Shown: positions 141 to 11,500 of the stretch, piece by piece
How the letters are laid out: every line of letters starts with the position of its first letter
Numbering within the stretch: position 1 is the stretch's first letter
Notes under the pieces: generated by a model
What the model was told of the DNA's origin: nothing
Seen by the model: only the letters and a program-made list of their open reading frames with translations
The model's database searches: none
Position numbers and translations under genes: made by a program
From: a virus
Lineage: Duplodnaviria > Heunggongvirae > Uroviricota > Caudoviricetes
Reading direction: 5' to 3' (one strand)
Virus record (IMG/VR): IMGVR_UViG_648276665_000003
Coordinates: 1-11,509 of that record
DNA: 11,509 nt

Positions 141-1121
141 TTATAACGTCACTCCGCCTTTTAGAGGATTCAGCGCGACGGCATTTTGCAGGTAGTCAGG
201 CGCAAGGTGCGCATAGGCCATCGTCTGCTGAATGCTCGCATGTCCCAGAATCTGTTGCAGTGCGATTATATTGCCCCCATTCATCATGAAATGGCTTGCG
301 AATGTATGCCGCAGGATGTGGGTTGCCTGATTGGGTGGTATATCTGGCTTCACTCTGCGTAAAATCCCGCAAAACTTCTCATAATCAACTTTGAATAATT
401 TAGCGCTGGCCTCCTCTTTAACTTTTTTCTCCAGTTCCTCAGAAATCGGCACGGTTCGCTTTTTACCGTTTTTGGTTTTCAGGAAGGTAACCCTGCAATT
501 TGTAATCTGTGCTGGTTTTAGCGTGGCAACTTCCGTCCATCTTCCTCCAGTGCTCAGACATAAAAGTGCGACAAGTAAGTCATCACCATCCAAAACATTT
601 AACAGTTTTTCGATTTCTGCTTTTTCCAGGAACGTCATTTCAGGGTTGGCCTCCGCCAGTGGCGGCAGTCCGTGAATTGGGTGTTGCCCGGAAAATTCAT
701 CCAATTGAATTAATTTTGTGAACATGCCGGATAATCGGTACATGTCACGGTTTATCGTTGCGGCACTGATACCATTTCGTAGTCGCATGGAACGATAATC
801 CATCAAAGCTCTTTTGCTCATCCGGCTCACTGGTATATCACCTATGCCGCTGATGGTTTTGAGCAGATGATTAAACTCTTTTGTTCCATGCTCGTGGTTT
901 TGCCCGTGATATTTCCACCAGATGTCCAGCAACTCACTCAAAGTTCTGCGATCTGCTCGCTGACCTGCCCATTCTTTCTGGCTGGCGTAGGCGATTGTGT
1001 ATCGCTCAAATGCTACAGCCTCAGCTTTTCTTTCAAATTTCCTGCGGATGCGTTTTCCGTCGCGACCGCGAGGTCTAATGTCCACTTCATAGCGTCCATC
1101 ATCGAGCTTCTTAATTGACAT
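141..1121 (-). CDS. int: Tyrosine site-specific integrase, P2 Int family
   Basis: C-terminal catalytic region with 'HILRHTFASHF' (HxxR box) and 'TMAYAHL' (catalytic Tyr). The N-terminus 'MSIKKLDDGRYEVDIRP' is P2-Int-like. I take the ATG at 1121 as the start because GAGGG sits 7 nt upstream; the longest ORF begins at 1151 with no Shine-Dalgarno. Confidence 0.9.
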   Translation of the reverse strand: MSIKKLDDGRYEVDIRPRGRDGKRIRRKFERKAEAVAFERYTIAYASQKEWAGQRADRRTLSELLDIWWKYHGQNHEHGTKEFNHLLKTISGIGDIPVSRMSKRALMDYRSMRLRNGISAATINRDMYRLSGMFTKLIQLDEFSGQHPIHGLPPLAEANPEMTFLEKAEIEKLLNVLDGDDLLVALLCLSTGGRWTEVATLKPAQITNCRVTFLKTKNGKKRTVPISEELEKKVKEEASAKLFKVDYEKFCGILRRVKPDIPPNQATHILRHTFASHFMMNGGNIIALQQILGHASIQQTMAYAHLAPDYLQNAVALNPLKGGVTL

Positions 1122-1190
1122 AAGAAAGCCCTCTGACGCTGTATTCACCATCTTGGTAACAAATGGTGAAAATGTAATGTTTATAGAGTG

Positions 1191-3393: not shown

Positions 3394-3665
3394 GTATTCG
3401 TATTGAAATTGGCGAACGTTATGTCGTTACCAGTGACAGCTTTCAGTTTATTCTCCACGAGAAAAAGAGAGCGGAAAGCGGTAAAAACGCCGGTCAGGAA
3501 TGGCTGTCGGTGGTTGGTTATTACCCGAAATTAAGCCAGCTCGTTTCCGGCCTGATGCATCACGATATTCTGACCGGAAGCGCAAAATCTTTTGCCGATT
3601 TAAACGCGCAGGTTGAGCAACTCAGCAAGCGTTGTTCAGAGGCTTTTGGCTCATATGGACGTTAA
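3390..3665 (+). CDS. Small early protein of unknown function (position of P2 orf83)
   Basis: 91 aa; its ATG overlaps the upstream stop (ATGA), and its 3' end overlaps the start of gene A. Confidence 0.55.
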   Translation: MSIRIEIGERYVVTSDSFQFILHEKKRAESGKNAGQEWLSVVGYYPKLSQLVSGLMHHDILTGSAKSFADLNAQVEQLSKRCSEAFGSYGR

Positions 3666-5952
3666 AGCCTCCGGGCGTTTTGTCCCTCCGTCAGCATTTG
3701 CCGCAGGTACCGGTAAGACGTTTACCGGTGCTTATGCATGGAACGCGCCACGCGAGGCTGTCGGGCGCGAAAGACCCCTTACACGTGACGAGATGCGTCA
3801 GGTGCAAGGTGTTTTATCCACGATTAACCGTCTGCCTTACTTTTTGCGCTCGCTGTTTACTTCACGTTATGACTACATCCGGCGCAATAAAAGCCCGGTG
3901 CACGGGTTTTATTTCCTCACATCCACTTTTCAGCGTCGCTTATGGCCGCGCATTGAGCGCGTGAATCAGCGCCATGAAATGAACACCGACGCGTCGTTGC
4001 TGTTTCTGGCAGAGCGTGACCATTATGCGCGCCTGCCTGGAATGAATGACAAGGAGCTGAAAAAGTTTGCCGCCCGTATCTCATCGCAGCTTTTCATGAT
4101 GTATGAGGAACTCTGCGATGCATGGGTGGATGCGCATGGCGAAAAAGAATCGCTGTTTACGGATGAGGCGCAGGCTCACCTCTATGGTCATGTTGCTGGC
4201 GCTGCACGTGCTTTCAATATTTCCCCTCTCTACTGGAAAAAATACCGTAAAGGACAGATGACCACGAGGCAGGCATATTCTGCCATTGCCCGTCTGTTTA
4301 ACGATGAGTGGTGGACTCATCAGCTTAAAGGCCAGCGTATGCGCTGGCATGAGGCGTTACTGATTGCTGTCGGGGAGGTCAATAAAGACCGTTCTCCTTA
4401 TGCCAGTAAACATGCCATTCGTGATGTGCGTGCACGCCGCCAGGCAAATCTGGAATTTCTTAAATCGTGTGATCTCGAAAACAGGGAAACAGGCGAGCGC
4501 ATCGACCTTATCAGTAAGGTGATGGGCAGTATTTCTAATCCTGAAATTCGCCGGATGGAGCTGATGAACACCATTGCCGGTATTGAGCGTTACGCCGCCG
4601 CAGAGGGTGATGTGGGGATGTTTATCACGCTGACCGCGCCGTCAAAGTATCACCCGACACGTCAGGTTGGAAAAGGCGAAAGTAAAACCGTCCAGCTAAA
4701 TCACGGCTGGAACGATGAGGCATTTAATCCAAAGGATGCGCAGCGTTATCTCTGCCGTATCTGGAGCCTGATGCGCACGGCATTCAAGGATAATGATTTA
4801 CAGGTCTACGGTTTGCGAGTCGTCGAGCCACACCACGACGGAACGCCGCACTGGCATATGATGTTTTTTTGTAATCCACGCCAGCGTAACCAGATTATCG
4901 AAATCATGCGTCGCTATGCGCTCAAAGAGGATGGCGACGAAAGAGGAGCCGCGCGAAACCGTTTTCAGGCAAAACATCTTAATCGGGGCGGTGCTGCGGG
5001 GTATATCGCGAAATACATCTCAAAAAATATCGACGGCTATGCACTGGATGGGCAGCTCGATAACGATACCGGCAGACCGCTGAAAGATACTGCCGCGGCT
5101 GTTACCGCATGGGCGTCAACGTGGCGCATTCCGCAATTTAAAACGGTTGGCCTGCCGACAATGGGGGCTTACCGTGAACTACGCAAATTGCCTCGCGGCG
5201 TCAGCATTGCTGATGAGTTTGACGAGCGCGTCGAGGCTGCACGCGCCGCCGCAGACAGTGGTGATTTTGCGCTGTATATCAGCGCGCAGGGTGGGGCAAA
5301 TGTCCCGCGCGATTGTCAGACTGTCAGGGTCGCCCGTAGTCCGTCGGATGAAGTTAACGAGTACGAGGAAGAAGTCGAGAGAGTGGTCGGCATTTACGCG
5401 CCGCATCTCGGCGCGCGTCATATTCATATCACCAGAACGACGGACTGGCGCATTGTTCCGAAAGTGCCGGTCGTTGAGCCTTTGACTTTAAAAAGCGGCA
5501 TCGCCGCGCCTCGGAGTCCTGTCAATAACTGTGGAAAGCTCACCAGCGGTGATACTTCGTTACCGGCTCCCACGCCTTCTGAGCACGCCGCAGCAGTGCT
5601 TAATCTGGTTGATGACGGTGTTATCGAATGGAATGACCCGGAGGTCGTGAGGGCGCTCAGGGGCGCATTAAAACACGGGCTGAGAACACCAAATCGTCAG
5701 CAGAGAAACGGAAGCCCGTTAAAACAGTATGAAATGGCACCATCGGCCAGACTGACCCGGTCGGAACGAATGCAAATTACCCGTATCCGCGTTGACCTCG
5801 CTCAGAACGGTATCAGGCCGCAGCGATGGGAGCTTGAGGCGCTGGCGCGTGGGGCGACCGTAAATTATGACGGGAAACATTTTACTTATCAGGTCGCTGA
5901 TGAGTGGCCGGGATTCTCAACAGTATTAGAGTCAAACTCAGTGAAGCGTTAA
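3655..5952 (+). CDS. A: Rolling-circle replication initiator (HUH endonuclease), P2 gpA family
   Basis: HUH motif 'TPHWHMMFF' and tandem-tyrosine motif 'YIAKYISK'. I take the ATG at 3655 ('MDVKASGRF...'), giving 765 aa against about 761 for P2 gpA; the ORF-track start at 3613 is a TTG. Confidence 0.9.
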   Translation: MDVKASGRFVPPSAFAAGTGKTFTGAYAWNAPREAVGRERPLTRDEMRQVQGVLSTINRLPYFLRSLFTSRYDYIRRNKSPVHGFYFLTSTFQRRLWPRIERVNQRHEMNTDASLLFLAERDHYARLPGMNDKELKKFAARISSQLFMMYEELCDAWVDAHGEKESLFTDEAQAHLYGHVAGAARAFNISPLYWKKYRKGQMTTRQAYSAIARLFNDEWWTHQLKGQRMRWHEALLIAVGEVNKDRSPYASKHAIRDVRARRQANLEFLKSCDLENRETGERIDLISKVMGSISNPEIRRMELMNTIAGIERYAAAEGDVGMFITLTAPSKYHPTRQVGKGESKTVQLNHGWNDEAFNPKDAQRYLCRIWSLMRTAFKDNDLQVYGLRVVEPHHDGTPHWHMMFFCNPRQRNQIIEIMRRYALKEDGDERGAARNRFQAKHLNRGGAAGYIAKYISKNIDGYALDGQLDNDTGRPLKDTAAAVTAWASTWRIPQFKTVGLPTMGAYRELRKLPRGVSIADEFDERVEAARAAADSGDFALYISAQGGANVPRDCQTVRVARSPSDEVNEYEEEVERVVGIYAPHLGARHIHITRTTDWRIVPKVPVVEPLTLKSGIAAPRSPVNNCGKLTSGDTSLPAPTPSEHAAAVLNLVDDGVIEWNDPEVVRALRGALKHGLRTPNRQQRNGSPLKQYEMAPSARLTRSERMQITRIRVDLAQNGIRPQRWELEALARGATVNYDGKHFTYQVADEWPGFSTVLESNSVKR

Positions 5953-6035: not shown

Positions 6036-7061
6036 ATGATGACTGTAAAGGTGATAGACCTTTTTTGTGGTGCTGGCGGATTAACTCATGGTTTACAGCT
6101 TGCGGGGCTTGATGTCGTTGCAGGCATAGACCTTGAGGGGGAATGTCGGTTTCCCTATGAAAGAAACAATAAATCTAAGTTTATTGAGCAAGATATCGCT
6201 AAAGTAACAAAAGAGGAACTGCTGAGGCTTTATGGTGATGCGTCTGTAAAAGTATTGGCAGGATGCGCACCTTGCCAACCTTTTTCAAAATATACTCAAG
6301 GAAAAGATAAGGCTGATGATAAAAAATGGCCTCTTCTTTATGAGTTCGAACGTTTAATTCGCGAAGTATCTCCAGAAATCGTAACAATGGAGAACGTTCC
6401 TGATGTAACTAAACATAAAGTTTATAATGATTTTTATAATTCATTGTTAAAGTTGGGCTATTATGTTTGGGCGTCGAAGGTTGATTGTGTCGAATATGGA
6501 ATCCCACAAAACCGTTCCCGTCATGTATTGTTGGCTTCAAAATTGGGGGCGATTGAGTTAGTAAAACGTGACGATGTTATTTTGAAAACAGTTAGAGATG
6601 CAATAGGAAATCTTCCTCCGTTAGAAGATGGCCAAACAGATCCAAATGATATATTACATAGAGCCAGTAAATTAAATCCGATTAATAAAAAAAGAATTAT
6701 ACACTCTGTTCCTGGTGGTACATGGAAGGACTGGCCGAAGGAGCTGATTGCTGCTTGTCATATGAAATCTAGCGGTAAAGGATATGCTAGTGTATATGGG
6801 CGCATGTCTTGGGATAAGCCAAGTCCAACAATTACAACTCTTTGTTATGGTTTCGGAAATGGACGTTTTGGACATCCAGAACAGCATAGAGCGATTTCTC
6901 TTAGAGAGGCTGCTTTATTGCAAACTTTTCCGATGGATTATATCTTTGTAGAAGACAAAGACAAGTTTGTTATAAGAAGTATTGGGAAAATGATAGGTAA
7001 TGCTGTTCCTGTGGAACTAGGAAAAGCAATTGGGCAATCAATCAAGAACCATTTAGAATGA
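6036..7061 (+). CDS. DNA (cytosine-5)-methyltransferase
   Basis: Canonical C5-MTase motifs in order: I 'DLFCGAGG', IV 'GCAPCQPFS' (catalytic PC), VI 'TMENVPD', VIII 'QNRSRHVL', X-like 'GNAVPV'. Shine-Dalgarno GGAG 6 nt upstream. The gene is AT-rich (about 35% GC in sampled stretches) against roughly 50% in the flanking phage genes. Confidence 0.9.
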   Translation: MMTVKVIDLFCGAGGLTHGLQLAGLDVVAGIDLEGECRFPYERNNKSKFIEQDIAKVTKEELLRLYGDASVKVLAGCAPCQPFSKYTQGKDKADDKKWPLLYEFERLIREVSPEIVTMENVPDVTKHKVYNDFYNSLLKLGYYVWASKVDCVEYGIPQNRSRHVLLASKLGAIELVKRDDVILKTVRDAIGNLPPLEDGQTDPNDILHRASKLNPINKKRIIHSVPGGTWKDWPKELIAACHMKSSGKGYASVYGRMSWDKPSPTITTLCYGFGNGRFGHPEQHRAISLREAALLQTFPMDYIFVEDKDKFVIRSIGKMIGNAVPVELGKAIGQSIKNHLE

Positions 7062-7067
7062 TAAAAT

Positions 7068-7084
7068 GGCCTGCTTTGCAGGCC
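7068..7084. terminator. Bidirectional rho-independent terminator between the convergent MTase gene and DUF262 operon
   Basis: Perfect 7-bp stem GGCCTGC / GCAGGCC with a TTT loop, flanked by A/T-rich runs on both sides, between the stops at 7061 (+) and 7091 (-). Confidence 0.6.
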
Positions 7085-7090
7085 TTATTA

Positions 7091-7771
7091 CTATTGTTCT
7101 AAATATTCATTATTATTTATATAGTGCTCTATATTATTCGCGATTGCATCAAGATAGGCGATTACTTCTAATGAAATATTCTCTAAGTCCTGATATGAAA
7201 CATTTTTTCCAATCTCAGCAAATGATACATTGCCATGAGATAAATCATTACGATGTTGTTTGACAGTGGCTAATTTTTCACCATGTTTAGTGTGAGTGTA
7301 ATCAGAATATGTTGAAAAACCATATATTTTCGATTTTTCTTTGATTTCCTCTCTATCAATATTTCCTGAGAATATTTTCTTTTTGTTGAAAGTGCCATAA
7401 GATATACCGCAAGATATACCTTTAGTAAGACGGTTAACTAAACTTTCAATATTTACAGATTCATTTTTTAATCTTTTTAATATTTCTGACCTGATATTTT
7501 TCCTGAGTTTGTCAAATTCTACGTTTCTATCATAAATAGTCTCATGAATAAGGCAGATAGCTTCTCTCATTGTTGATTCAATGAGGTTATATAATAGAAT
7601 ATATACTGCCCCCTTTAGAGTTTTTCGTGATTGAGCAGTAATGGAGAACTTATGTTCTTTATCATCAGATGATATCAGTTCTGCACCGGCATACTCAATA
7701 AATTTCAAAAGATCTAAATAGGCCAAGATCTCTCCTGACCTTTCGTCAAAATCCTCACGAAAACGATCCAT
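7091..7771 (-). CDS. Hypothetical protein with C-terminal Rx4H motif (HEPN-like, putative RNase effector); second gene of the DUF262 operon
   Basis: 226 aa with 'QHRNDLSHG' (R-x4-H) about 45 residues from the C-terminus, where HEPN catalytic motifs sit. The start codon is 1 nt after the DUF262 stop, with Shine-Dalgarno GAGGAT. Very AT-rich. The HEPN assignment is from the motif only. Confidence 0.6.
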   Translation of the reverse strand: MDRFREDFDERSGEILAYLDLLKFIEYAGAELISSDDKEHKFSITAQSRKTLKGAVYILLYNLIESTMREAICLIHETIYDRNVEFDKLRKNIRSEILKRLKNESVNIESLVNRLTKGISCGISYGTFNKKKIFSGNIDREEIKEKSKIYGFSTYSDYTHTKHGEKLATVKQHRNDLSHGNVSFAEIGKNVSYQDLENISLEVIAYLDAIANNIEHYINNNEYLEQ

Positions 7772-7772
7772 G

Positions 7773-8915
7773 TTAATCCTCTAATAATTTATCCCGAACA
7801 TATTCAATTCGTTCAATTACCTTCACGCGACTATTAGCTCCGTCTGAAGTGGTCAATCGTTTGAATTCTTCTGAGCTTAGCCAATCCAAGTTCTTGGGAA
7901 CAAGGTCAGGGATTTCACGTAATGCAAGTGCTGCGCCAACAGCGAGAGATTCGAATCTAACTCGAGGTGTAGATTTTGCAGTAATAGTTTTCTTGAATCC
8001 TGCTGGGAAATAGTTATCAACAAAAGATAGAACATTAGCAAACTCTTGTTTCATTGAGTTTTGTTTAGTTTCGTCTATATCTCGATTTTCTAACATATAG
8101 TCATTTAGAAAATCCCGTACGGAATGATCAAAGTTCTTGTACTTATCTAAGTAGGCAAAAAATCTTAATGTAAATTCTAACCGTTCATCTCGTTTTTCTT
8201 TAGTCTGAGATAAAGGTGCTAATTCTTTAAATTTAGGTATTGTTGAGCATGGCTTAATAACCTGTGTATATAAATTTGTTGAACCAAGTTCTGATCCTTT
8301 ACGGACTTCCATATCTTTCAATATATCGCTGCCAGAGTTAATACGTTCAAAAAGATCTCTACGGGTTTCTTCATTGCATTTAGAACTCAATTCTATAACG
8401 CGGACAGGAATTCTCATGAAACGACGTTGACGTGATAATGGTAAATCTTGGAATTTGAAACCATTAAGGGCGTCTAAAGATTTCAGATCTTGTAAAACTA
8501 ATTCATTTTGGATAAAAGCGTGTATAGTCCTAACTCGCTGTGAGCCATCAACAATCTCAATTCGCCCATCTAAATCGGGATCTTCGGAGAGAACATCTGC
8601 TGTAAATATATATGGTATAGGAAAACCCAAAATCAAAGACTCTATCAATCTTGATTGTCTTTTTTCACTCCAAACAAAATCCCTTTGATAATCAGGAACA
8701 AAGAGTTCGTTAGTATCATCCTCTAATCCGCTATGATACTTATTAACTAATAACTCAACGGTAAATTCTTTGGTCTCAAAATCCACATCCTTTTGCTCAG
8801 CACGAATTTGCTCTTCAGCGTTTTGCTTTATCACCTCTAGCTGAGCAAGCAACTCTGCTCTTTTCTTGGCATTATCTTCATTTTCTAGTTGAGATTTTAA
8901 ATCAATAATGTCCAT
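7773..8915 (-). CDS. DUF262 (ParB/GmrS-like NTP-binding) domain protein; first gene of a two-gene operon
   Basis: DUF262 signature blocks 'VPDYQRDFVW', 'LIESLILGFPIP' and 'DGSQRVRTI' (DGQQR-type). The likely start is the ATG at 8915 with AGGGAG 6 nt upstream; the ORF track extends to a TTG at 8933. There is no recognisable fused His-Me/HNH (DUF1524) domain. Confidence 0.8.
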   Translation of the reverse strand: MDIIDLKSQLENEDNAKKRAELLAQLEVIKQNAEEQIRAEQKDVDFETKEFTVELLVNKYHSGLEDDTNELFVPDYQRDFVWSEKRQSRLIESLILGFPIPYIFTADVLSEDPDLDGRIEIVDGSQRVRTIHAFIQNELVLQDLKSLDALNGFKFQDLPLSRQRRFMRIPVRVIELSSKCNEETRRDLFERINSGSDILKDMEVRKGSELGSTNLYTQVIKPCSTIPKFKELAPLSQTKEKRDERLEFTLRFFAYLDKYKNFDHSVRDFLNDYMLENRDIDETKQNSMKQEFANVLSFVDNYFPAGFKKTITAKSTPRVRFESLAVGAALALREIPDLVPKNLDWLSSEEFKRLTTSDGANSRVKVIERIEYVRDKLLED

Positions 8916-9100
8916 GTCTAGCTCCCTTAACAAGTGTTAAAAATTGAAGCGGATAGCATACCGCATAGATCATGAAAAATGCCATCATGTGCATGGATTT
9001 GCATGCGTCAGAAGTCGCTTTTATTGTTAGTTATCACTAGCGATGGTGTGCTCTTGGAGTGTTCATGCAACTGCATTAAAAATGCCCCATGAAGCGGGCG

Positions 9101-9119
9101 GGCGAGGCGGGGAAAGCAC
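9101..9119. other. cos site: 19-nt cohesive-end sequence of P2/186/P4-type phages
   Basis: Exact match to 'GGCGAGGCGGGGAAAGCAC', which I recall as the P2/P4 cohesive end. It lies between the end of the early region and gene Q, as in P2. Confidence 0.75.
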
Positions 9120-9261
9120 TGCGCGCTGGCGGTGGTGCTGATTTTATTTTTTCAGCGTCTGAGCGCGTCTTGATGGCGTTTAGATTGTGCGCCGGGGCGT
9201 TGGTGTGTCTGCGGGGTGTTTTGTGCGGTGGTGAGCGTGTGAGGGCGTGATGACGGGGTGT

Positions 9262-9283
9262 AAAAAAGCCGCCCGCAGGCGGC
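9262..9283 (-). terminator. Rho-independent terminator downstream of Q
   Basis: On the minus strand: stem GCCGCC / GGCGGC with a 4-nt loop followed by TTTTTT (plus strand 'AAAAAAGCCGCCCGCAGGCGGC'), immediately 3' of the Q stop. Confidence 0.6.
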
Positions 9284-9288
9284 GATGT

Positions 9289-10323
9289 TCAGCCGTTGTC
9301 AGTGTCCAGTGAGTAGTTTTTAAAGCGGATGACCTCCTGGCCGAGCCAGCCGTTTATTTCCCGAATCCTGTCCTGTAACGGGATAAGCTCATTGCGGACA
9401 AAGACCTTTGCCACTTTCTCAATATCACCCAGCGACCCGACGTTCTCCGGCTTGCCCCCCATCAACTGAAAGGGGATGCGGTGCGCGTCCAGCAGGTCAG
9501 CGGCGCTGGCTTTTTTGATATTAAAAAAATCGTCCTTCGTTGCCACTTCACTGAGCGGGATAATTTTAATGCCGTCGGCTTTCCCCTGCGGGGCATAGAG
9601 AAACAGATTTTTAAAGTTATTGCGGCCTTTTGACTTAACCATGTTTTCGCGAAGCATTTCGATATCGTTGCGGTCCTGCACGGCATCGGTGACGTACATG
9701 ATGTATCCGGCATGTGCGCCGTTTTCGTAATACTTGCGGCGGAACAGCGTGGCCGACTCATTCAGCCAGGCAGAGTTAAGGGCGCTGAGATATTCCGGCA
9801 GGCCGTACAGCTCCTGATTAATATCAGGCTCCAGCAGGTGAAACACGGAGCCGGGCGCGAAGGCTGTCGGCTCGTTGAAGGACGGCACCCACCAGTAAAC
9901 ATCCTCCTCCACGCCACGACGGGTATATTTGGCCGGTGAGGTTTCCAGTCTGATGACCTTACCGGTGGTGCTGTAACGCTTTTCCAGAAACGCATTACCG
10001 AACACCAGAAAATCCAGCACAAAGCGGCTGAAATCCTGCTGGGAAAGCCACGGATGCGGGATAAATGTCGAGGCCAGAATATTGCGTTTGACGTAAATCG
10101 GGGAGCTGTGATGCACGGCAGCACGCAGGCTTTTTGCCAGACCGGTAAAGCTGACCGGTGGCTCATACCATCTGCCGTTACTGATGCACTCAACGTAATC
10201 CAGAATGTCACGGCGGTCGAGTACCGGCACCGGCTCACCAAAGGTGAATGCCTCCATTTTCGGGGCGCTGGCGGTCATTTTTTTTGCCGCAGGTTGCGGT
10301 GTTTTCCCTTTTTTCTTGCTCAT
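9289..10323 (-). CDS. Q: Portal protein, P2 gpQ-like
   Basis: 344 aa, the same as P2 gpQ as I recall. It is the first gene after cos on the complementary strand, and its ATG overlaps the stop of the upstream terminase fragment (TGATG). Confidence 0.8.
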   Translation of the reverse strand: MSKKKGKTPQPAAKKMTASAPKMEAFTFGEPVPVLDRRDILDYVECISNGRWYEPPVSFTGLAKSLRAAVHHSSPIYVKRNILASTFIPHPWLSQQDFSRFVLDFLVFGNAFLEKRYSTTGKVIRLETSPAKYTRRGVEEDVYWWVPSFNEPTAFAPGSVFHLLEPDINQELYGLPEYLSALNSAWLNESATLFRRKYYENGAHAGYIMYVTDAVQDRNDIEMLRENMVKSKGRNNFKNLFLYAPQGKADGIKIIPLSEVATKDDFFNIKKASAADLLDAHRIPFQLMGGKPENVGSLGDIEKVAKVFVRNELIPLQDRIREINGWLGQEVIRFKNYSLDTDNG

Positions 10324-10592
10324 CAGTAAAACTCCAGAATGGTGGATGTCAGCGGGGTGCTGATACCGGCGGTGAGTGGCTCATTTAACAGGGCGTGCAT
10401 GGTCGCCCAGGCGAGGTCGGCGTGGCTGGCTTCCTCGCTGCGGCTGGCCTCATAGGTGGCGCTGCGTCCGCTGCTGGTCATGGTCTTGCGGATAGCCATA
10501 AACGAGCTGGTGATGTCGGTGGCGCTGACGTCATATTCCAGACAGCCACGGCGGATGACGTCTTTTGCCTTGAGCACCATTGCGGTTTTCAT
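10323..10592 (-). pseudogene. P: C-terminal fragment of the terminase ATPase subunit (P2 gpP-like); the 5' portion is missing
   Basis: The reading frame directly upstream of Q with stop/start overlap extends only about 90 codons before running into antisense FI sequence and a stop at 10716-10718; gpP should be about 590 aa. Identity rests on position. Confidence 0.55.
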
Positions 10593-10621
10593 TTCCGGCG
10601 TGTAACCGTACCTGCTCCGAT

Positions 10622-10969
10622 GACCCGCTGTTCCTCTTTGAAAACTACACCCGCACCGCGCAGGTGCTGGCCGACACGATGGCTGAGGCGCACATGTGGG
10701 CGGTGGACAAGCCCATCACCGCAACGCTGATTCGCGACATCGTTGACGGCATCAATGCCAAATTCCGTGAGCTGAAAACAAACGGCTATATCGTGGATGC
10801 GACCTGCTGGTTCAGCGAAGAATCCAACGATGCGGAAACCCTCAAGGCCGGAAAACTGTATATCGACTACGACTATACCCCGGTGCCTCCTCTTGAAAAC
10901 CTGACCCTGCGCCAGCGTATTACCGATAAATACCTGGCAAATCTGGTCACCTCGGTTAACAGCAATTAA
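10622..10969 (+). pseudogene. FI: C-terminal fragment of the tail sheath protein (P2 gpFI-like); the 5' portion is missing
   Basis: Open frame ending '[11 protein letters not shown]' immediately upstream of FII, with no plausible start or Shine-Dalgarno; about 115 codons against about 396 for intact gpFI. The fragment start is approximate. Confidence 0.55.
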
Positions 10970-10981
10970 GGAGCCTGACCG

Positions 10982-11500
10982 ATGGCAATGCCGCGCAAAC
11001 TCAAGTTAATGAACGTCTTTCTGAACGGCTACAGCTATCAGGGCGTCGCGAAGTCCGTCACGCTGCCAAAACTGACCCGTAAGCTCGAAAACTATCGCGG
11101 TGCGGGGATGAACGGCAGCGCACCGGTAGACCTCGGCCTTGATGACGATGCGCTGTCAATGGAGTGGTCGCTCGGGGGCTTCCCGGATTCGGTTATCTGG
11201 GAGCTTTACGCCGCAACCGGTGTGGATGCTGTGCCGATTCGTTTTGCAGGCTCTTACCAGCGTGACGATACCGGCGAAACGGTGGCCGTCGAAGTGGTCA
11301 TGCGTGGACGTCAGAAAGAAATCGACACCGGCGAGGGTAAACAGGGAGAAGACACTGAGTCGAAAATCTCCGTGGTCTGCACCTATTTCCGGCTGACGAT
11401 GGACGGTAAGGAGCTGGTCGAAATCGACACCATCAACATGATTGAGAAGGTGAACGGCGTCGACCGGCTGGAGCAACACCGCCGCAATATCGGCCTGTGA
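10982..11500 (+). CDS. FII: Tail tube protein, P2 gpFII-like
   Basis: 172 aa, the same as P2 gpFII as I recall, with strong Shine-Dalgarno TAAGGAG. It follows the FI fragment in the FI-FII order. Confidence 0.75.
   Translation: MAMPRKLKLMNVFLNGYSYQGVAKSVTLPKLTRKLENYRGAGMNGSAPVDLGLDDDALSMEWSLGGFPDSVIWELYAATGVDAVPIRFAGSYQRDDTGETVAVEVVMRGRQKEIDTGEGKQGEDTESKISVVCTYFRLTMDGKELVEIDTINMIEKVNGVDRLEQHRRNIGL

Follow-up and report, generated by a model that had tools for sequence, protein, structure and literature searches.

What kind of system is formed by a stand-alone DUF262 protein and the small HEPN-like protein encoded directly behind it? The question is raised by a two-gene operon on the minus strand of the window (the whole stretch of DNA analysed, 11,509 nucleotides), which is a defective E. 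coli P2-like prophage. An earlier note on this DNA read the operon as a sensor NTPase paired with a toxic RNase effector. Both open reading frames are present and the model is a reasonable one, but the note missed a third partner, a C5 cytosine methylase gene that converges on the pair. We consider it rather probable that these genes together make up a cargo module of the defence type, in which the methylase gene is convergent with a coupled DUF262–HEPN operon, and the unit is probably three genes rather than two.

The DUF262 protein and its HEPN partner

The upstream gene (7773–8915, minus strand) encodes a 380-residue, stand-alone ParB-like NTPase with a helical C-terminal domain of the ParBDB type. 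Its ATG start agrees with RefSeq; an in-frame TTG is found at 8933. The Pfam GmrSD_N/DUF262 profile matches residues 63–206 (E = 4.7e-26; 92.6 bits versus a cutoff of 33.2), and Pfam detects no DUF1524 or HNH domain in either the 380-residue or the 226-residue protein, in agreement with the claim of the earlier note that no such nuclease is fused to the DUF262 domain. DUF262 proteins are marked by motifs I (QRxxxW), II (DGxQR) and III (FxxxN), as defined in PMC12065111, which also describes the role of motif II as the nucleotide-binding centre. Translation places YQRDFVW (motif I) at 8670–8690 and DGSQR (motif II) at 8535–8549, both on the minus strand, and likewise contains GFPIP, the remaining block that had been read from this gene. 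Residues Y76, Q77, R78, F80 and W82 of motif I, D123–R127 of motif II and the whole of motif III (F-E-R-I-N) are invariant among homologues, so that both the profile and all three motifs identify the protein as a DUF262 family member. In a structure comparison it adopts a BrxU/SspE-like fold of DUF262 and middle domain, with BrxU as the top match and without the nuclease domain. The protein is predicted to serve as DNA sensor and switch.

The downstream gene (7091–7771, minus strand) encodes a 226-residue HEPN protein of the MAE_28990 family. Pfam HEPN_MAE_28990 (PF18737) matches nearly its full length (residues 5–223; E = 2.8e-29; 103.2 bits versus a cutoff of 26.8), and HEPN_RiboL-PSP matches as well (E = 8.5e-9). 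The R-x4-H motif on which the earlier note had based its assignment, R174-N-D-L-S-H179 (codons at 7235–7252, minus strand, from the translation), is the predicted catalytic motif; across 32 diverse homologues, R174, N175, L177, H179 and G180 do not vary (RNxLxH). The fold check that the note had proposed bears out the assignment, since the structural model is all-alpha, has the HEPN core fold with HEPN structural neighbours and gives no His-Me finger matches. Scans of the protein with PADLOC (at E ≤ 1) and NCBIfam profiles gave no match, and a search of PDB sequences with the HEPN profile returned only noise. We predict that this protein is the RNase effector. Since the defence-annotation profiles of PADLOC miss it, loci of this kind are probably under-counted in defence censuses.

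The two genes are separated by a single nucleotide. Within the junction (7772–7781, minus strand), a Shine–Dalgarno sequence GAGGA (7781–7777) lies inside the 3′ end of the DUF262 gene, followed by the stop codon TAA (7775–7773), the spacer nucleotide 7772 and, at 7771–7769, the ATG of the HEPN gene. A spacing of −4 to +3 nt is kept in homologous loci L001, L003, L005 and L006. As was already supposed from the stop–start distance, this arrangement suggests that DUF262 and HEPN are translationally coupled.

A convergent cytosine methylase

The plus strand carries a 341-codon open reading frame (6036–7061), convergent with the HEPN gene, for a C5 DNA cytosine methyltransferase; RefSeq places the start 3 nt later, giving 340 residues. 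The protein has a full-length match to Pfam DNA_methylase (E = 4.4e-58), also matches TIGR00675 (dcm), and its motifs FCGAGG, PCQ (with Cys80), ENV, QNRSR and GNAVP are all intact. Its target-recognition region (residues ∼165–285) is as conserved as the catalytic core, across phyla. We regard the methylase as the probable third member of the module. Its gene and the HEPN gene are 29 nt apart, and in this gap a terminator scan found, on both strands, a perfect GC-rich hairpin, GGCCTGC-ttt-GCAGGCC (7068–7084), which is a candidate bidirectional terminator.

Position in the prophage

The triad occupies the P2 defence hotspot between the genes for replication endonuclease gpA (3613–5952) and the portal protein (gpQ, 9289–10323), a locus documented as such by Rousset et al. 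(2022; PMC9122126). These three genes are the entire hotspot content in the window. The GC content of the cargo region is 30–39% versus 51–56% in the flanks, and both this atypical composition and the gpA–portal location mark the triad as P2-like hotspot cargo. In Serratia symbiotica, the triad is found at the same gpA–portal position as in E. coli. RefSeq holds a locus of 100% identity, whose three proteins it names by family and which bears the same three protein accessions as Table S5A of Rousset et al.

Between the start of the DUF262 gene and the stop of the portal gene lies a non-coding region (8916–9288) without open reading frames of 60 or more codons. The operon promoter should lie within it; in a promoter scan, sites were no more numerous than in shuffled sequence and none was convincing. 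Sequence 8976–9300 has matches next to the portal gene in more than 2000 E. coli genomes, and from ∼8976 to 9288 the region consists of conserved P2-like phage sequence. The terminator scan also found a terminator-like hairpin (9268–9283) after the portal gene.

Conservation of the pair and loss of the methylase

The gene-neighbourhood survey proposed in the earlier note was based on 83 unique loci from several phyla that encode a homologue of the 226-residue HEPN protein. In 82 of them, the gene immediately upstream, in the same orientation, encodes a DUF262 protein; the sole exception has just 272 nt of upstream sequence. The pairing is thus conserved far beyond chance.

An orthologous methylase (52–72% identity) adjoins the pair at 39 of the 83 loci, and is convergent in 35. 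These methylase-bearing loci span Gammaproteobacteria, Cyanobacteria, Planctomycetes, Acidobacteria, Bacteroidota and one Betaproteobacterium. The methylase position is fixed, convergent with the 3′ ends abutting or overlapping, and pairwise divergence of the methylase correlates with that of DUF262 (r = 0.94) and of HEPN (r = 0.85). In the tree, loci with a methylase take basal, paraphyletic positions, which suggests that the gene was present ancestrally and was lost later. The same methylase family also accompanies another, divergent subfamily of the pair, found in Peduovirus P24B2 and Moraxella Mcat phages.

At 36 of the 83 loci, no orthologous methylase lies within ∼5 kb. The majority of them fall into a single derived Nostocales clade, in which the pair adjoins a conserved aconitase-like gene. 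Two cases are particularly clear. In Aphanizomenon locus L016, the methylase is cleanly deleted and the pair intact, with 97% DNA identity to the methylase-bearing sister locus L029; in Peduovirus P24B2, the methylase is frameshifted and the DUF262–HEPN pair is intact. Versions of the pair without methylase are also found on IncF plasmids. The methylase-less clades keep intact catalytic motifs. Clustering of the open reading frames flanking methylase-less pairs revealed no substitute methylase, the sole recurrent neighbour being the ∼900-residue aconitase-like frame (read by eye), which we take for synteny and reject as a system component.

Proposed mechanism and alternatives

In GmrSD and SspE, the DUF262 domain senses modification and works as an NTPase switch, and HEPN domains linked to restriction–modification systems have been proposed to be RNases restrained by restriction–modification subunits. 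By analogy with the DUF262 domains of GmrSD, BrxU and SspE, the DUF262/ParBDB protein may bind DNA as an NTP-driven switch and would keep its HEPN partner inactive until phage DNA is encountered. The freed or activated HEPN dimer would then cut RNA (tRNA or mRNA) with its Rx4H site, which would halt translation and abort the infection. The methylase would mark resident DNA with m5C at a conserved target sequence, and the DUF262 sensor would read this mark, most probably as 'self', limiting autoimmunity. In its full form, this is a tentative reading: the triad would resemble a restriction–modification system without a DNase, in which DUF262 reads m5C at a conserved motif and unmarked or wrongly marked DNA turns on the HEPN RNase. 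Our literature search found no experiment on the triad, and we thus infer defence activity, RNA cleavage and the role of methylation alike.

Under strict restriction–modification logic, a cell that lost the methylase would die, unless another methylase in its genome took over. The 36 methylase-less loci, the deletion in L016, the frameshift in P24B2 and the methylase-free PD-T4-2 system (described below), which functions in K-12, argue against such logic. The persistence of natural pairs without a methylase suggests that this enzyme tunes the system and is not strictly essential. If the restriction–modification-like reading is true, the methylase-less clades would be derivatives with a changed trigger or with a methylase elsewhere in the genome.

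These same observations are what a rather doubtful alternative builds on, namely that the DUF262–HEPN pair alone is the functional system, a PD-T4-2-like, type-IV-like sensor of modified or phage-specific DNA, and that the methylase is co-travelling cargo which might, for example, shield the mobile element from restriction by the host. The defence by PD-T4-2 involves no methylase, 36 of the 83 loci do without one, L016 and P24B2 have lost theirs with the pair intact, IncF plasmids carry the pair by itself, and Rousset et al. (PMC9122126) called a Vibrio DUF262 + HEPN_MAE_28990 locus 'Type-IV restriction'. However, the methylase comes from the same family and holds the same convergent, abutting position beside the pair in at least six phyla or classes, also outside prophages. 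The correlation of its divergence with that of DUF262, its apparently ancestral presence in the basal, paraphyletic loci and its retention by the second pair subfamily speak against this alternative as well, and a resident m5C methylase would clash with a sensor triggered by cytosine modification. The mark could instead license defence, with the DUF262 sensor depending on host m5C for its activation or positioning in the way that SspE depends on phosphorothioate, so that methylation enables the response; this is unlikely, since the methylase-less clades with their intact catalytic motifs appear functional and PD-T4-2 is active without a methylase.

We give little credence to a toxin–antitoxin or addiction module, in which DUF262 would neutralise a HEPN toxin and the locus would mainly stabilise the prophage without sensing phage DNA. 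Many HEPN toxins have a neutralising enzyme, for example MNT, encoded upstream of them, and for the related MAE_18760 family a ParA-like ATPase has been suggested; moreover, the DUF262 and HEPN genes are tightly coupled, and the prophage is defective yet has retained its cargo. Set against this are the invariant NTPase motifs and the DNA-binding-type ParBDB domain of the DUF262 protein, which are typical of sensors, the location within a documented defence hotspot and the protection against phage by the related pair PD-T4-2. Toxin–antitoxin and abortive-infection roles are compatible with each other. The earlier note had named a DUF1524 fold in the small protein as grounds for regarding the pair as an ordinary split GmrSD. 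Such a type IV enzyme, with the 226-residue protein as GmrD-like His-Me finger DNase, would account for the GmrS-type DUF262 domain and for BrxU as top structural match of the upstream protein. But the small protein is a full-length HEPN_MAE_28990 match without DUF1524 or HNH, and its all-alpha model has HEPN neighbours and no His-Me finger matches; we therefore reject this explanation as extremely improbable.

If the restriction–modification-like reading holds, discrimination of self and non-self by an epigenetic mark would lead straight to RNA cleavage and abortive infection rather than to the cutting of DNA. Our literature search found no paper that explains the mechanism of PD-T4-2 or of the wider DUF262-plus-HEPN class. 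The triad is a compact, E. coli-native version with a dedicated methylase and thus a convenient entry point to two questions: how a stand-alone DUF262/ParBDB NTPase senses DNA and controls a separate effector, and whether DNA methylation can gate an abortive response that relies on an RNase. Testable handles are the residues that are invariant in each of the three proteins, the conserved target-recognition region and the natural methylase-less variants.

Comparison with known systems

The earlier note held the DUF262–HEPN pairing to be undescribed. This does not stand, since PD-T4-2, a computational survey from 2013 and Table S5A of Rousset et al. all precede it. The module belongs to a known kind, and as both its architecture and this very locus had already been published and annotated in RefSeq, it is weak as a discovery claim. 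Table S5A (PMC9122126) catalogues the same three proteins as P2-hotspot cargo; the accessible parts of that paper show no sign of the triad arrangement being cloned or tested, with the triad present as a catalogue entry only, and the accessible part of the curated summary table S5B holds no match to the HEPN sequence.

PD-T4-2 (Vassallo et al. 2022; PMC9519451) is a 'DUF262, HEPN' pair from E. coli ECOR65, validated against T4 both natively and in K-12. Its A protein is a DUF262 protein without DUF1524, and its B protein matches HEPN_RiboL-PSP and HEPN_MAE_28990 by HHpred, the two Pfam families also matched by the HEPN protein of the window. The DUF262 protein of the window matches the PADLOC profile PD-T4-2_A (E = 5e-35; profile positions 55–355 of 363), although NsnA scores higher. 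The PD-T4-2_B profile, in contrast, matches neither the HEPN protein of the window (E ≤ 1) nor three other family variants, and close kinship of the effectors is thus unsupported. PD-T4-2 also differs in that it lacks a methylase and that its B protein is shorter (the HHpred alignments of this protein stop at residue 163, and the two reading frames cover 1540 bp in total). As judged from profiles and the published HHpred tables, the triad is a divergent relative of this validated anti-T4 pair.

PD-lambda-5 from the same study is described as 'ParB/HEPN, methyltransferase' and by its authors as a compacted 'RM+Abi' system. Like the triad, it is prophage-borne and combines ParB-like and HEPN functions with a DNA methyltransferase. 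However, its ParB and HEPN parts are fused and its methylase is of the D12 class (PF02086, MethyltransfD12), whereas that of the window is a C5 enzyme; PD-lambda-5 profiles are absent among the listed PADLOC matches of the window proteins. The best PADLOC match of the DUF262 protein is NsnA (E = 2e-54, full length), the ParB-DUF262 + ParBDB protein of Menshen (NsnABC; Millman 2022; Li et al. 2025, PMC12065111), which has the same architecture. Nevertheless, the three-gene hotspot contains no gene for the NsnB ATPase or the NsnC inPIN nuclease, and the effector here is a HEPN protein. GmrSD, BrxU and SspE, which are type IV or modification-sensing enzymes, carry a DUF1524 nuclease; the DUF262 protein of the window has none, fused or adjacent, and its partner is of the HEPN RNase type. 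The locus is not a classical type II restriction–modification system either, for no DNase can be recognised beside the methylase with its intact motifs, and natural deletion or frameshift of the methylase occurs with the pair intact. DARNA (PD-T7-3), HEC-05/06/08 and the DefensePredictor systems were also checked as matches and found to differ.

A description that covers all three kinds of gene is that of Anantharaman, Makarova, Burroughs, Koonin and Aravind (2013; PMC3710099, Table 1), who listed ParB-superfamily and DNA methylase genes in the neighbourhood of MAE_28990 HEPN genes. The window belongs to this class, with HEPN, ParB-superfamily and methylase genes adjacent to each other, and both Pfam PF18737 and the RefSeq product name of its HEPN protein trace to the MAE_28990 family of that study. 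The 2013 work was purely computational and gave no arrangement, host range or function. To its description, the present analysis adds the convergent layout, the co-divergence of the methylase, the methylase-less clades and the location in the P2 hotspot.

The prophage and its cargo

The window, 11.5 kb in length, is a P2-like prophage of E. coli and carries genes for an integrase (141–1151, minus strand), a repressor-like protein of the immunity region (1191–1484, minus), the replication endonuclease gpA (3613–5952, plus) and a portal protein (9289–10323, minus), and early genes are also present. Between gpA and the portal gene lie a C5 cytosine methylase gene (6036–7061, plus), a 226-aa ORF (HEPN; 7091–7771, minus) and a 380-aa ORF (DUF262; 7773–8915, minus), with a GC content of 30–39% as against 51–56% in the flanking sequence. 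The gpA–portal interval is a documented P2 defence hotspot, where P2 itself carries old and tin (Vassallo 2022, PMC9519451; Rousset 2022, PMC9122126). The same three genes are found at 89–100% identity in 9 of 5,426 complete Escherichia coli genomes, and RefSeq names their products ‘DNA cytosine methyltransferase’, ‘MAE_28990/MAE_18760 family HEPN-like nuclease’ and ‘DUF262 domain-containing protein’.

Beside the portal gene, window positions 8976–9300 match more than 2000 E. coli genomes at ∼ 91–93% identity regardless of cargo and form the conserved boundary of the hotspot on the phage side; we take this stretch to be, probably, the cos-proximal region of P2. The terminase gene that follows the portal gene retains only ∼ 90 C-terminal codons (10323–10969; breakpoint near 10583) and runs into the 3′ portion of the tail-sheath gene, followed by the tail-tube gene (10982–11500). 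Since the terminase remnant joins the tail-sheath gene directly, the prophage has lost its capsid genes and most of its tail genes and is defective. Both halves of the junction lie within ∼ 1.3–1.7 kb in four to five complete E. coli genomes, suggesting that these share the same deletion. H1, the genome with the 100%-identical triad, has a full-length terminase gene.

In a P2-like prophage of Serratia symbiotica (L006:7943–12687), the triad and a DinI-like gene fill the hotspot, and two more methylase genes (one C5, one D12-class) are situated on the opposite side of gpA. Many public contigs bearing the triad proteins are just 3.4–4.2 kb long, approximately the size of the triad, as expected from assembly breaks at the repeated P2 sequences that flank the hotspot; in short-read surveys the cargo will hence often appear detached from its surroundings.

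The HEPN and DUF262 proteins

The DUF262 stop codon (TAA, 7775–7773) is separated by one base from the HEPN start codon (ATG, 7771), and a Shine–Dalgarno sequence, GAGGA, lies inside the final codons of the DUF262 gene. This confirms the gene junction described in the earlier note, and the motifs listed there (YQRDFVW, DGSQR and RNDLSH) indeed translate from this region. The convergent methylase and HEPN genes are 29 nt apart, and exactly between them a perfect, GC-rich 7-bp hairpin (GGCCTGC ttt GCAGGCC, 7068–7084) is terminator-like on both strands; it resembles a bidirectional terminator serving both genes.

The 226-aa protein, earlier called HEPN-like, is a HEPN protein. It matches Pfam family HEPN_MAE_28990 over its full length (E = 2.8e-29) and also HEPN_RiboL-PSP (E = 8.5e-9), and the AlphaFold2 model built on an alignment of 32 homologues (identity down to 33%) is confident (pLDDT 90.9, pTM 0.87) and all-alpha save for one small hairpin. 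None of the structural matches of this model is a His-Me finger protein, and the split GmrSD that the earlier note had named as a refuting outcome is therefore rejected. In the alignment, Arg174, Asn175, Leu177, His179 and Gly180 are invariant, as are Tyr61 and Glu65 in the first long helix. Two further blocks, FSGNID (residues 134–139; Gly136 and Asn137 invariant, the remainder at least 90% conserved) and YGF (150–152; Tyr150 and Phe152 invariant, Gly151 at least 90% conserved), belong to a stretch inserted into the fold that minimal HEPN domains lack, and they may form a regulatory or partner-binding site.

The 380-aa protein has a GmrSD_N/DUF262 Pfam match (E = 4.7e-26) and no Pfam match to DUF1524, just as had been proposed. 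The DUF262 motifs QRxxxW, DGxQR and FxxxN, as defined by Li et al. 2025 (PMC12065111), are all invariant in 29 homologues. With PADLOC, the top match, over the whole length, is NsnA of Menshen (E = 2e-54), followed by PD-T4-2_A (E = 5e-35); these profile matches imply a predicted ParB-DUF262 plus ParBDB (DNA-binding) architecture. AlphaFold2 modelled the protein with middling confidence (pLDDT 78), and a Foldseek search with the model returned only insignificant ParB matches. Overall, the protein is similar to a GmrSD-family enzyme over the N-terminal two-thirds of the latter and lacks the nuclease domain.

Linkage of the methylase to the pair

We inspected contigs carrying four distantly related HEPN homologues. 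Peptide patterns derived from the HEPN alignment were then run against a GTDB collection with a single genome for each species; in it, 275 candidate stretches proved to encode a confirmed relative, and we retained 80 loci. Of the 83 unique HEPN loci, 82 have a DUF262 gene immediately upstream in the same orientation; the sole exception has no upstream sequence. An orthologue of the methylase (phmmer E ∼ 1e-110 to 1e-176; 50–72% identity) adjoins the pair in 39 of 83 loci; the two-gene boundary proposed earlier is probably one gene short. It is convergent with HEPN, abutting or overlapping its 3′ end, in 35 of the 39, and directly upstream of DUF262 in the other 4; in 36 loci it is absent from the flanks, and 8 are only partly assessable.

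Methylase-bearing loci are found in Vibrio, Aliivibrio, Pseudoalteromonas and Methylococcales on the gammaproteobacterial side, and in one Betaproteobacterium, many cyanobacteria, Pirellulaceae, Pyrinomonadaceae and one Cytophagia MAG. Since these genomic contexts are unrelated, the linkage is not peculiar to P2. The methylase has diverged in step with its neighbours, its pairwise distances being correlated at r = 0.94 with those of DUF262 and at r = 0.85 with those of HEPN; across phyla, HEPN diverges fastest (∼ 40% identity, compared with ∼ 50% for DUF262 and ∼ 54% for the methylase). The variable target-recognition region of the methylase (approximately residues 165–285) is conserved to the same degree as the catalytic core, suggesting a single specificity that has been kept.

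A neighbour-joining tree of the concatenated pair places the loci with a methylase at its base as a paraphyletic set and gathers most of those that lack it in a single derived clade of Nostocales. A second, far more divergent pair subfamily, found in Peduovirus P24B2 (same P2 hotspot) and nine Moraxella Mcat phages, carries the same methylase family (identity to the window: DUF262 43–45%, HEPN 30–32%, methylase 59–77%). The functional unit is thus probably the three genes.

Loci without the methylase

The main rival reading limits the system to the pair and treats the methylase as separable cargo. The linkage across phyla argues against it; in its favour, the methylase is dispensable. A derived cyanobacterial clade lacks it, and pair-only versions are found on IncF plasmids of E. 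coli and Salmonella. In Aphanizomenon flos-aquae FACHB-1287 (L016:5677–5708) the methylase gene is cleanly excised and the pair intact, 97% identical in DNA to that of its methylase-bearing sister, Dolichospermum circinale (L029:5677–6797), with flanking synteny kept; this deletion is recent. In P24B2 (L089:2021–3041, NC_049387.1) a frameshift near 2361–2365, possibly a sequencing error, splits the methylase, which at 72–77% identity to that of the window is far better conserved than its intact pair (DUF262, 381 aa, 45%; HEPN, 239 aa, 30%). In classical restriction–modification (R-M), a cell that loses the methylase but keeps the restriction function dies. Either, then, these loci are covered by a methylase encoded at another genomic site, or methylation adjusts the system and is not the only thing that keeps it in check. 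PD-T4-2 needs no methylase to work in K-12 (Vassallo 2022, PMC9519451).

The methylase-less cyanobacterial pairs (L023, L024, L027, L032, L033, L036, L044, L051, L066 and L077) lie just downstream of a conserved ∼ 900-aa ORF, which, read by eye, looks aconitase-like. This fixed chromosomal position suggests vertical inheritance of the Nostocales pair-only version. The IncF variant (L090:2325–4025, E. coli IncFIA plasmid pVE155; also H35–H40) encodes a 353-aa DUF262 protein and a 211-aa MAE_28990 HEPN protein near parM partition genes on conjugative plasmids; the PADLOC PD-T4-2_B profile does not match this HEPN variant.

Proposed mechanism

In GmrSD, BrxU and SspE, the DUF262 domain acts as an NTPase switch that senses DNA modification and controls the attached nuclease, and HEPN domains are almost always metal-independent RNases, active as dimers and held off by partners. 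From this behaviour we infer a four-step mechanism. The DUF262/ParBDB protein would be a DNA sensor and NTP-driven switch, and the HEPN protein its RNase effector, arresting translation with an abortive-infection-type outcome. The methylase would write an m5C self-mark for the sensor to read, and the reading may be protective, in the manner of R-M, which is the option we prefer. Alternatively, the mark may license the sensor, as phosphorothioate does for SspE. The earlier note had read the domains correctly as a sensor NTPase and an RNase effector, and its mechanistic sketch is reasonable. That the locus is an R-M-like system with an RNase output in place of a DNase is a tentative proposal, which we consider possible but rather unlikely.

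Comparison with known systems

The pairing is not new, contrary to the earlier note. In composition the triad is exactly the neighbourhood that Anantharaman et al. 2013 (PMC3710099, Table 1) give for MAE_28990, and Rousset et al. 2022 (PMC9122126) have the arrangement among their P2-hotspot loci, with identical WP_ accessions for all three proteins. The locus belongs to a known kind that has been described computationally and validated in part; in the literature searched, we found no paper that tests the triad or explains PD-T4-2. Identity with Menshen was rejected because NsnB and NsnC are absent, and with GmrSD because DUF1524 is absent.

PD-T4-2 is likewise a ‘DUF262, HEPN’ pair, and its B protein matches the same two Pfam HEPN families. 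However, the PD-T4-2_B profile misses the HEPN protein of the window and three other variants, and the pair is therefore a sister lineage of PD-T4-2, not PD-T4-2 itself. Of the questions that the locus raises, what the methylase does is the most interesting. The nearest validated functional analogue is PD-lambda-5 (‘ParB/HEPN, methyltransferase’), described by its authors as a compacted RM+Abi system (Vassallo 2022, PMC9519451), which differs in that its ParB and HEPN parts are fused and its methylase is of the D12 class (PF02086).
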